From positions 142,958 to 206,957 of the forward strand of contig CP129472.1 in NCBI GenBank assembly GCA_030583725.1: DNA of 64,000 bases, written 5' to 3'. The stretch is from a bacterium. GTDB taxonomy: Bacteria; Patescibacteriota; Microgenomatia; UBA8517. Made by a program: the position numbers and the translations under genes. The notes below the pieces were generated by a model, which saw only the letters and a list, made by a program, of their open reading frames with translations, was not told where the DNA came from and ran no database searches. Position 1 is the first letter of the stretch, and each line of letters begins with the position of its first letter. Positions 48,484-49,404 of the stretch are shown in pieces.

Positions 48484-49404
48484 ATGGATGATTTGCTGGA
48501 AGATGCAGTAAATGTTTGTATTCAATATGACAGAGCTTCTGCTTCACTTCTGCAAAGAAGATTATCAATAGGTTACGCCAGAGCTGCTAGAATTATTGAC
48601 CAACTAGAGTCTGCTGGTGTACTTGGTATGTCTGATGGTAGCAGTAAACCTCGGGAAGTTTTAATTAAATCATATAAAGAATTTAAAACAAAAGATGATC
48701 ATGGGTTAGTTGCTGAAAAGAAAGATGAGTTTAAAGAAACTTCTAAGGAGTATACTCCAATTGTTGCAGATTTTTTAACTGATGATATTAAAAAATTATT
48801 AAAACCTACTGACTTACCATATATAAAAAATGACCTTACCCGAATTGGTAATTTAATTGTCACAGGGAACGTGATTAGTAAAAAGTATGAATATATAAAA
48901 ACTTATTTACTGTTTTTACTTTCAAAGTTTAATTTGTCTGATGTTAGAGTAATAATTGATGACGGGACTGGAAAACTTAAAAAGTTTGGCAGTATCCCAC
49001 ACCTTTTAACTTCCATTATTGATAAATCTGAAGAATCTCTTTCATCACTTCGCTGGCTAAGTCGAGAAATGGATAGAAGAATTGAAATAATTAATAAAGA
49101 TGATAAAACCACTTTTCCTGAGATTATTTACATAGGAAATATATTCAGTTTCTATAACAGTGATATTGAATATGCAATCAAAAGAATTTCTTCAATGGGT
49201 GCATATGCAAAAATTCATTTAATTTTGCTTGGTGATAGACTTGGTGACTTTCCAAAACAAATCAAAGACAATATCCCCGCAAGACTTGAGTTTAGTAAAT
49301 TTGGAGAAGCTGAAGCAGTATTTAGTTTTAAGGAAAAAATAAAAATTAGAATAACTGAATTAGACAAAGTGAAAGTTATAGATTATTTAGCAAATCTTAG
49401 CTAA
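48484..49404 (+). CDS. FtsK/SpoIIIE-family protein with N-terminal gamma (wHTH) domain and degenerate beta (RecA-like) domain - predicted pseudo-ATPase
   Basis: aa 1-60 match FtsK-gamma ([45 protein letters not shown]...PREVL); downstream region aligns to FtsK beta (SDVRVIIDD...IPHLLTSII...[43 protein letters not shown]) but Walker A is GNVISKKY and Walker B is IGNIF. Confidence 0.6.
   Translation: [306 protein letters not shown]

Follow-up and report, generated by a model that had tools for sequence, protein, structure and literature searches.

A γ-first FtsK paralogue with a degenerate motor, encoded beside defence islands in Patescibacteria

FtsK is one of the most thoroughly studied DNA motors of bacteria. 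Its domain order, in which a membrane anchor is followed by an α-β motor and a C-terminal γ domain, is treated as invariant. What, then, is to be made of a protein family in which that order is reversed? The question is raised by a gene at 48484..49404 (+ strand) of a 64-kb stretch of the genome of a member of the Patescibacteriota (positions 142,958 to 206,957 of contig CP129472.1), referred to below as the window. Its 306-aa product, WKZ25891.1, begins at an ATG codon and is annotated by NCBI as 'DNA translocase FtsK'. An initial annotation, made from the sequence alone, described it in other terms, as an FtsK paralogue with the γ winged helix at its N-terminus, both Walker motifs degenerate and, it was suggested, a regulatory or anti-translocase role in place of DNA pumping. 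The results presented here indicate that the gene belongs to a conserved γ-first family, the catalytic motifs of which are degenerate and the members of which lie next to defence genes.

The domain order was established with Pfam and by direct alignment (all features of the gene are on the + strand). FtsK_gamma (PF09397) was found at residues 2–61 (48487..48666; E=4.6e-24, 84.4 bits, cut-off 30.6), in agreement with the winged helix first placed at residues 1–60. FtsK_SpoIIIE (PF01580) was found at residues 117–206 (E=3.8e-9, 36.8 bits, cut-off 24), within a degenerate, RecA-like FtsK β domain, here termed β′, that occupies residues 116–306 (48829..49401). The two are joined by a poorly conserved linker (residues 62–115; 48667..48828), which stands in place of the lost α domain. 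In direct alignments γ lies at the C-terminus of the solved Escherichia coli and Pseudomonas aeruginosa FtsK chains and at the N-terminus of the 306-aa protein. No Pfam match to FtsK_alpha (PF17854) was obtained for this protein, whereas its canonical relatives all carry α. It also lacks a hydrophobic segment, with a maximal 19-residue Kyte–Doolittle mean of 1.21 and no window above 1.6; the corresponding values for P0175, the canonical FtsK of the same genome, are 2.76 and 47 windows. The absence of both an α domain and a membrane anchor, as initially described, is therefore borne out. The protein is a soluble member of the FtsK-HerA superfamily, with the order γ-linker-β′ as against the transmembrane (TM)-linker-α-β-γ order of canonical FtsK.

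The assignment of the C-terminal region was examined by profile and structural comparison. A family profile built from 27 members matched P. aeruginosa FtsK (2iut) with E=2.5e-64; profile positions 114–362 cover the complete β domain of 2iut (chain 174–464), and positions 9–70 cover γ (chain 499–559). The AlphaFold2 model of the 306-aa protein is confident (mean pLDDT 87.2), with residues 73–87 predicted to be disordered, and its top Foldseek matches are FtsK motor domains (6t8o/2ius, E~1e-13 to 1e-14), followed by the D2/D3 domains of EssC/EccC. All three sequence blocks that the initial annotation had aligned colinearly with the β motor were reproduced against the E. coli and P. aeruginosa proteins. 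It is apparent that β′ retains IPHLL, LRWxxxEMxRR, IHLIL (GIHLIL) and NIPxR, and that the C-terminal β segment DSR...GAEKLLGKGDMLY is missing. The PF01580, 2iut, AlphaFold2 and Foldseek results place the C-terminal region in the FtsK family and not in another. The identity and architecture of the protein, those of a domain-permuted FtsK paralogue, can thus be regarded as nearly certain.

The γ-first proteins fall into two clades, a short one of ~306–320 aa, which includes WKZ25891.1, and a long one of ~375–390 aa. To compare catalytic motifs, 65 short-clade and 45 long-clade proteins were aligned with 120 canonical Patescibacteria FtsKs. The canonical Walker A motif, AGQTGSGKS, is present in 120/120 of the latter, as against a consensus of G-N-x-x-S-x-K in the γ-first family. 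In the window protein the P-loop remnant at residues 127–135 (48862..48888) reads TGNVISKKY; neither the two inner glycines nor the Mg-coordinating Ser/Thr survive, as the initial reading of GNVISKKY, with both glycines of GSGKS lost, had it. The canonical Walker B motif, IDELAD, is found in 100% of the canonical proteins. Neither γ-first clade has Asp-Glu at that position, which in WKZ25891.1 is taken by G218-N219 (49135..49140), so that the loss of Walker B is also upheld. The sensor motif has changed from ATQRPS to xxDRxx, and the long clade retains the DSR...GAEKLLGKGDMLY segment in degenerate form, the short clade not at all.

Although the catalytic residues are lost, what the initial annotation missed is that the first glycine (G128) and the Walker A lysine (K134) are retained; together with S132 they are 96–100% conserved in both clades. 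The P-loop remnant therefore appears to be under selection still. As judged from the alignment, catalytic degeneracy is a conserved trait across the family and not a one-off, and the term 'ATPase-dead' seems apt insofar as the motifs make hydrolysis look impossible.

The family is widely sampled. The best 120 homologues are all γ-first and all lack G-x4-GK[ST], and more than 100 γ-first clusters were recovered from independent assemblies (NCBI, JGI, ENA and Logan), carrying the labels Woesebacteria, Dojkabacteria or Patescibacteria, in agreement with the candidate phyla radiation (CPR) affiliation assumed in the initial annotation. When 1.84 billion cluster representatives were searched exhaustively, approximately 25 γ-first clusters, at 50% identity, were among the top 150 matches; a metagenome scan with a β′-only alignment yielded 8 loci. 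An identical gene is present in two independent assemblies from the same sample; the closest homologues are only ~73% identical, and synonymous sites are saturated. The architecture thus recurs in related genomes, and the number of independent clusters rules out the artefact that the initial annotation had allowed for, namely an assembly join between the 3′ end of ftsK and unrelated sequence.

That the protein is a paralogue of FtsK, as had been proposed, follows from the presence of a complete canonical ftsK elsewhere in the same 841,695-bp genome (sample SRR24881069). Its product, P0175 (WKZ25278.1), has 696 aa, TM segments, α, β with GQTGSGKS and DELAD, and a C-terminal γ. The γ domain of the window protein (γ′) is 73% identical to the γ of this FtsK, but β′ is only 29% identical to its β. 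A second genome encodes both proteins, P0055 and P0215, on one contig of 457,239 bp. No second FtsK-like ORF was found within the 64-kb window. A scan of GTDB species-representative genomes was made with γ-domain patterns and hence returned canonical FtsKs, which were reused as a control set and as a source of queries. Among the matches listed, γ-first proteins made up 1/598 of the γ-pattern matches, and 79 were canonical Patescibacteria FtsKs (~700 aa, β then γ, intact GxTGSGKS). If the listed matches are representative, the gene appears to be a sporadic accessory gene.

Unusual FtsK architectures suggest how the permutation could have arisen. The N-terminal extension of longer members (…VPGVSGDTDD…) matches the canonical pre-γ linker (…VPGVTGDTDD…). 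Tandem β-γ-β-γ FtsKs occur among the database representatives (P0241 and P0246, the first β of P0246 lacking Walker A), as do γ-(α)-β-γ proteins with an intact Walker A motif (P0261 and P0372) and a γ-first protein, P0378, with an intact GVPSSGKS and a Walker B motif that reads 'DG'. Such architectures are the stages that would be expected for permutation by duplication, then truncation, then catalytic decay. The β of the tandem and γ-β-γ proteins scores as canonical and not as β′; these proteins exemplify the route without being themselves the direct ancestors. A viral origin was also considered and was rejected, as no γ-first relative was found on IMG/VR viral contigs.

One further protein of unusual composition, P0049 (402 aa, on a 1,308-nt ENA contig), has a predicted C5 DNA methyltransferase (MTase) N-terminus fused to β′. 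It is 60% identical over 65% of the query, and may be either a real product of recombination at an island border or a chimera of assembly or gene calling.

Which part of the protein is most constrained? Mean identity within the short clade is 79% for γ, 59% for β′ and 38% for the linker. Residues were mapped onto E. coli FtsK via PMC5052618. R25, which is invariant in the family, corresponds to R1289, which forms a critical salt bridge to XerD; R36 and D39, both conserved in the family, correspond to R1300 and E1303, which contact the FtsK-orienting polar sequences (KOPS) (PMC5052618). At the position of E. coli N1296 there is an alanine (A32), as there is in canonical Patescibacteria FtsK. 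In the two genomes that encode both proteins, γ′ is 71% and 65% identical to the γ of its own host's FtsK, 62% and 58% identical to that of the other host, and the two γ′ domains are 59% identical to each other. This tracking of host γ by γ′ is suggestive of a shared, host-specific ligand.

The initial annotation had placed the gene next to a restriction-modification (R-M) cassette. The cassette does lie immediately upstream, but the association is not incidental to this one locus. In 11/11 independent loci, comprising the window and ten others from both clades, R-M or defence genes were found within six genes upstream of the γ-first gene, and in the long clade they flank it on both sides. Recurring accessory families are a Trypsin_2 protease (LmuA / reverse transcriptase (RT)-protease-like domain), DUF2779, DUF2130, DUF3800, PDDEXK_1, Bro-N and RhuM. 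As controls, 79 canonical-ftsK loci (1.23 Mb) from the same phylum were used. R-M-type homologues were detected in 9/11 γ-first loci vs 1/79 canonical-ftsK loci (Fisher p=7.6e-10), the R-M query genes for this test having been taken from the γ-first loci themselves. The corresponding figures were 6/11 vs 0/79 for Trypsin_2, 4/11 vs 0/79 for DUF2779 and 3/11 vs 0/79 for DUF2130.

The surroundings of canonical ftsK are of a different kind. In a Pfam census of four genes on each side at 18 loci, RNase J (16) and HTH_25 (16) were prominent, PNPase, S15, AlaRS, UDG and a Lon-like AAA protein were often neighbours as well, and no R-M families were among the top 25 Pfams. At 16/18 loci canonical ftsK (loci L007–L085 and L102) is preceded by RNase J and followed by an HTH_25 (RodZ-like) gene, and P0175, the window genome's own FtsK, is encoded in just such an RNase J-ftsK-HTH_25 housekeeping block. 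By guilt by association the γ-first gene is a resident of defence islands; the sample is, of course, small, and enrichment is no proof of a defence function. The family-wide nature of the association shifts the likely biology from routine segregation towards mobile-DNA conflict or island biology.

The composition of these islands varies between relatives. In the window, L087 and L096 the downstream flank is syntenic (PDDEXK_1, a Big-domain protein, Wzy_C and polysaccharide genes), but the upstream cargo differs. tRNA genes are scattered among the defence genes. In both the window and L087 (tRNA at 2759-2832 in the latter) the variable segment is delimited by a tRNA-Thr(cgt) gene and the γ-first gene, yet the two segments have entirely different contents. 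L001 and L098 share a Leu-Leu-Val-Phe-Gly tRNA array, with respect to which the island and the gene are placed differently in each.

The DNA immediately upstream of the gene provides a candidate ligand. A conserved 17-mer, CACTCCCCTACTCTTGC (48436..48452, + strand), abuts and overlaps the −35 box of a σ70-type promoter, TTGCGA-17 nt-TATAGT (48449..48477, + strand), the 3′ end of the element being that box. As the ATG is situated 6 nt past the −10 box, the mRNA is probably leaderless. Fifteen contiguous nucleotides, ACTCCCCTACTCTTG, are invariant upstream of the gene in eight short-clade loci, in DNA that is otherwise unconserved and AT-rich and beside genes whose products are only 55–73% identical. 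The element occurs once per locus and 0 times in the canonical-ftsK loci. On the bottom strand, 48441–48448 reads GAGTAGGG, which fits GnGnAGGG. This octamer is a member of the GAGNAGGG family, recognized by SpoIIIE in Bacillus subtilis (SpoIIIE recognition sequences, SRS), and matches the E. coli KOPS pattern GGGNAGGG at 7/8 positions (both patterns from PMC3384302). Given this KOPS/SRS-like octamer, a γ domain, be it the protein's own or that of FtsK, is the obvious candidate ligand, autoregulation is the simplest reading, and the conserved element may be regarded as a candidate operator for a γ domain.

Two other interpretations of the element were tried and rejected. As an attachment (att) site or direct repeat of the island it fails, the 17-mer being single-copy in the 64-kb window even with 3 mismatches allowed. 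As a dispersed KOPS it fails likewise, its 8–9-mer core having one copy in the window. GnGnAGGG occurs there once on the + strand and 6 times on the − strand, as compared with 1.8 and 4.1 expected from composition, a strand bias that is not significant.

What, then, might such a protein do? It would be a non-pumping protein that acts by binding. The β′ body would most likely serve as an oligomerization scaffold presenting several γ heads, and these would recognize the ligands of FtsK γ, that is, a GnGnAGGG-type (KOPS/SRS-like) octamer, a Xer recombinase, or both. The protein would probably regulate its own expression through the octamer beside its −35 box. Because the gene appears sporadic and always borders tRNA-linked R-M/defence islands, whereas ftsK itself sits in a housekeeping block, the role is most likely one in mobile-DNA conflict or island management, as opposed to the routine segregation of chromosomes; the protein might, for example, occupy FtsK/Xer target sites that invaders exploit, or divert them. 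This mechanistic package, consisting of a non-catalytic scaffold, γ ligands, autoregulation and a mobile-DNA or island role, is put forward tentatively, as a plausible account that falls somewhat short of probable. The regulatory or anti-translocase role initially suggested in place of DNA pumping is compatible with the evidence.

A more specific version is that the protein is an FtsK-derived, pseudo-enzyme immunity factor with host-specific γ heads and KOPS-like autoregulation. It might act as a dominant-negative decoy that denies invaders the FtsK/Xer/KOPS machinery on which Xer-dependent integration or FtsK-like packaging and transfer depend, or it might organize the turnover of the adjacent defence cassettes. 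This joint reading is doubtful. In either form it would mean that a defence-island gene had for the first time been traced to FtsK proper, and that a pseudo-enzyme serves bacterial immunity in the CPR.

A number of observations weigh against a binding protein with an island role. The invariant Walker A lysine may leave room for nucleotide binding. The island location could be passive, with the gene merely flanking a tRNA-linked integration hotspot. No conserved operon partner was found across the γ-first loci, and PADLOC-DB 2.0 gave only weak, generic matches for the 306-aa protein (mad8, 1.4e-4; SspH, 3.4e-4). The resemblance of the promoter element to KOPS hinges on a single octamer; the element overlaps a −35 box and could simply reflect a promoter under unusual constraint, or be bound by a different regulator; and it is absent from the long clade. 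The + strand of the window has 0 copies of GAGNAGGG and the − strand has 3. When 74 Patescibacteria sequences (1.25 Mb in all) were oriented according to their GC skew and pooled, GAGNAGGG was distributed 69:20 in favour of the G-rich strand, with a density of 1 per 14 kb, and ranked 6/168 among same-composition permutations, for which the median skew is 0.69; with five related permutations ranking higher, this pooled skew is suggestive only. Finally, the rarity figure rests on the matches listed, and the co-variation of γ′ with host γ on two genome pairs.

Membership of a PADLOC system was itself considered and rejected, the weak matches reflecting FtsK/HerA homology and a conserved partner gene being absent. 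Two unannotated families do recur beside γ-first genes (in the long clade and the L092/L094 lineage) and are absent from the 79 control loci. One, c11 (~130–147 aa), is found at L002 9527-9958(−), L092 7891-8277(+) and L101 12901-13341(+); the other, c32 (307–568 aa, with faint FG-GAP-like repeats), is found at L094 6282-7985(+) and L101 9346-10266(−). In L092 and L094 these genes are directly upstream on the same strand, and may be partners of the γ-first gene. Neither family has a Pfam, PHROG or PDB match.

The alternative that survives best is that the protein is a housekeeping modulator of FtsK, which would assemble with the canonical motor or compete with it (by forming mixed hexamers or supplying extra γ domains), thereby tuning KOPS loading or Xer activation at dif during division, with the islands being incidental. 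The genome does encode a canonical FtsK, whose γ is 73% identical and whose β interfaces are homologous; the surface residues of γ are conserved; and the chromosomal position is stable, with downstream genes syntenic within lineages and tRNA genes adjoining the islands. However, the figure of 1/598 implies that most Patescibacteria manage without the gene, if the matches listed are a guide. The island association persists across lineages with differing core flanks, and in the long clade involves both sides; the island and gene lie at differing points relative to the tRNA array shared by L001 and L098; and β′ evolves much faster than canonical β. A housekeeping modulator is consequently considered unlikely.

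Could the gene instead serve the mobility of the island? In this alternative a stand-alone γ would activate Xer recombination without FtsK, or would mark DNA for transfer, and would thus promote the exchange of cassettes; functionally it would resemble XafT of the TLC satellite phage or, for the marking of DNA, the winged helix-turn-helix (wHTH) of Streptomyces TraB. Close relatives carry different cargo directly upstream of the gene, the critical γ arginine is invariant, and a serine recombinase is encoded nearby in L098. PMC5052618 and PMC3130261 describe activation of XerD by γ alone, for which a 9-residue stretch suffices. Against this, a search of the window for a dif-like site (CATAATNTATATTATGTTAAAT, 3 mismatches allowed) gave 0 matches, neither direct nor inverted repeats of a convincing kind were found around the island (40–50 kb), and no further shared intergenic junction motif was seen. 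No tyrosine recombinase is encoded in any annotated γ-first locus, and no γ-first relatives were found on IMG/VR viral contigs. Taken together, these results make a mobility function distinctly unlikely.

A third alternative concerns the conserved P-loop remnant and holds that the G-N-x-x-S-x-K loop, with its invariant lysine, binds nucleotide and that the protein is a slow ATPase or a nucleotide-gated DNA clamp. In favour are the 96–100% conservation of G128, S132 and K134 in both clades, the intact GVPSSGKS of the γ-first protein P0378, and the fact that the next-best structural matches are the degenerate domains of EssC/EccC. The latter domains still bind ATP. The inner glycines and the Mg-coordinating Ser/Thr are replaced, however, the Walker B Asp-Glu is absent in all members examined, the sensor TQR is altered and the short clade is without the C-terminal β segment, so that an NTPase or NTP-binding switch is very unlikely. 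The last alternative, a decaying pseudogene from an ftsK duplication or an assembly chimera, would explain the loss of catalytic motifs and of whole domains and the plain FtsK label given by NCBI, but it is effectively refuted by intact ORFs in more than 100 clusters, strong conservation of γ and of many β′ motifs, the invariant promoter element, the confident fold prediction and the identical gene in two independent assemblies.

Comparison with known systems helps to delimit the non-catalytic binding protein proposed here. Canonical FtsK/SpoIIIE shares with it homologous β and γ domains, the IPHLL, LRWxxxEMxRR, GIHLIL and NIPxR motifs and the Xer- and DNA-contact residues of γ, but differs in its C-terminal γ, membrane anchor, long linker, α domain, intact GxGK[ST] and DE motifs, and housekeeping locus. 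The D2/D3 domains of EssC/EccC (PDB 4lya, 4n1a, 4nh0 and 9jv8) are likewise FtsK-family, RecA-like domains with degenerate motifs, which act in binding or regulation and not as motors; they differ in being arranged in tandem in a large membrane protein with an active D1, in lacking γ, and in a sequence similarity much below that to FtsK.

XafT, the Xer activation factor of the Vibrio TLC satellite phage, is a small soluble protein with a DUF3653-type helix-turn-helix (HTH). Like the γ-first protein, it could engage XerD without the FtsK motor, but it is unrelated in sequence and is a conceptual analogue only; neither Xer sites nor Xer genes turned up in the vicinity of the γ-first gene. SftA is a soluble FtsK paralogue of B. 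subtilis that functions in segregation beside a membrane-anchored one. Like the γ-first protein it is a second, soluble FtsK; unlike it, SftA has the β-γ order and active Walker motifs.

The 'capture' modules DndH and SspH (PMC10853773, PMC12839542) also place FtsK/HerA domains in anti-invader loci together with a DNA-binding wHTH, and a long-clade γ-first protein, P0104, gave a weak match to the PADLOC SspH profile (E=5.5e-13). The DndH/SspH domains are, however, proposed to be active translocases, fused or operon-linked to nucleases, whereas the γ-first protein has a degenerate motor, is encoded by a stand-alone gene with its own promoter and derives from FtsK, not from HerA-like clades. Finally, PHROG families 13700, 22882, 36563, 6576 and 6152 carry stand-alone FtsK γ-like winged helices, which are N-terminal in phrog_22882. 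In these phage families, too, γ occurs outside a full FtsK, but in most of them it is not followed by β′; they suggest that phages deploy the domain as well, possibly to manipulate host FtsK/Xer.

No description of the γ-first architecture was found in the literature searched, which included comparative genomics of HerA/FtsK defence modules. The components (FtsK β and γ, pseudo-ATPases and defence islands) are known. What is new is their combination: γ precedes β, the motor is apparently dead, the family is conserved and confined to Patescibacteria, the gene resides strictly in defence islands, and a candidate KOPS-like operator stands before it. The family is a natural separation-of-function variant that could reveal the role of γ uncoupled from translocation. 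The label 'DNA translocase FtsK' in databases both hides the family and leads to miscounting of ftsK copies. The island association suggests that the machinery of chromosome segregation and the defence against mobile DNA are connected, and in the tiny genomes of Patescibacteria every retained accessory gene is informative. The KOPS/SRS-like operator, moreover, is a concrete candidate DNA ligand that may reveal the KOPS motif of the CPR.

The variable defence island of the window extends over 41308..48378, upstream of the γ-first gene. It begins with tRNA-Gly(ccc) (41308-41379), which is followed by genes for a DUF2130 protein (41390-42430, −) and a Bro-N protein, a candidate defence gene (PADLOC PDC-S13, E=2e-115; 42434-43270, −). 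Beyond tRNA-Thr(cgt) (43326-43399) are genes for a DUF2779 nuclease-like protein (43403-44554, +) and a 263-aa protein with no assigned family (44798-45589, −). The R-M region proper comprises a 166-aa methyl-directed restriction endonuclease (REase), a type II homologue (PADLOC E=2e-49; 45601-46101, −), a 346-aa putative REase (46085-47125, −), an HTH C-protein (47132-47356, −) and a C5 DNA MTase (47395-48378, −), the last of which divergently adjoins the γ-first gene. The methyl-directed REase gene overlaps the 3′ end of the gene for the 346-aa putative REase by 17 nt, so that a nuclease dependent on methylation directly abuts an R-M system that itself methylates DNA, the C5-MTase/C-protein cassette.

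The cargo at the other ten loci is diverse. An N6/N4 MTase with a MutH-like nuclease and ThsB-TIR was found at L001; GmrSD and, across the γ-first gene from it, a type III-like Res/Mod pair at L002; a type IIG enzyme, an MTase and PDC-S18 at L006; type I HsdM with an OLD/Gabija-like ATPase at L086; a D12 MTase and a type II REase at L087; type I HsdRMS at L092; a C5 MTase and Vsr at L094; DpnI at both L096 and L098; and DISARM DrmE with large helicases at L101.

Non-coding features were also observed. Directly downstream of the γ-first gene is a DUF3800-V small RNA (RF02964; 49455..49552, + strand; 63.5 bits vs a gathering threshold of 37.4), a class covered in PMC5737381, with its own promoter (49421-49449) and a terminator hairpin (49560-49579). 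Copies at L086 (8876-8973) and L098 (6295-6401) score 63–64 bits and adjoin DUF3800 protein genes; no DUF3800 gene was recognized near the RNA in the window. A second conserved non-coding element, of ~120 nt, is present at L001 (~4700-4830), L006 (~1080-1200) and L098 (~2560-2690), with the Trypsin_2 protease gene on one side and DUF3800/DUF2779 genes on the other. A TATAAT-type promoter is followed in it by GGTCGGTTGACAGAAATGTCTAGCTATCCTCTCAGCGTATGATAGTACTCAAACCGAGAACTGACC and then by a terminator hairpin; it has no Rfam match above noise and may be an undescribed island small RNA. A Group I catalytic intron (RF00028; 39968-40159, −; 82.3 bits vs a gathering threshold of 50) lies just outside the defence island of the window, where it separates an isochorismatase-family gene from a LysM gene. 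At L001 14445-14518 (+), ARAGORN reported a tRNA with a two-base anticodon call (ct), which Rfam scores as a normal tRNA (62.9 bits).

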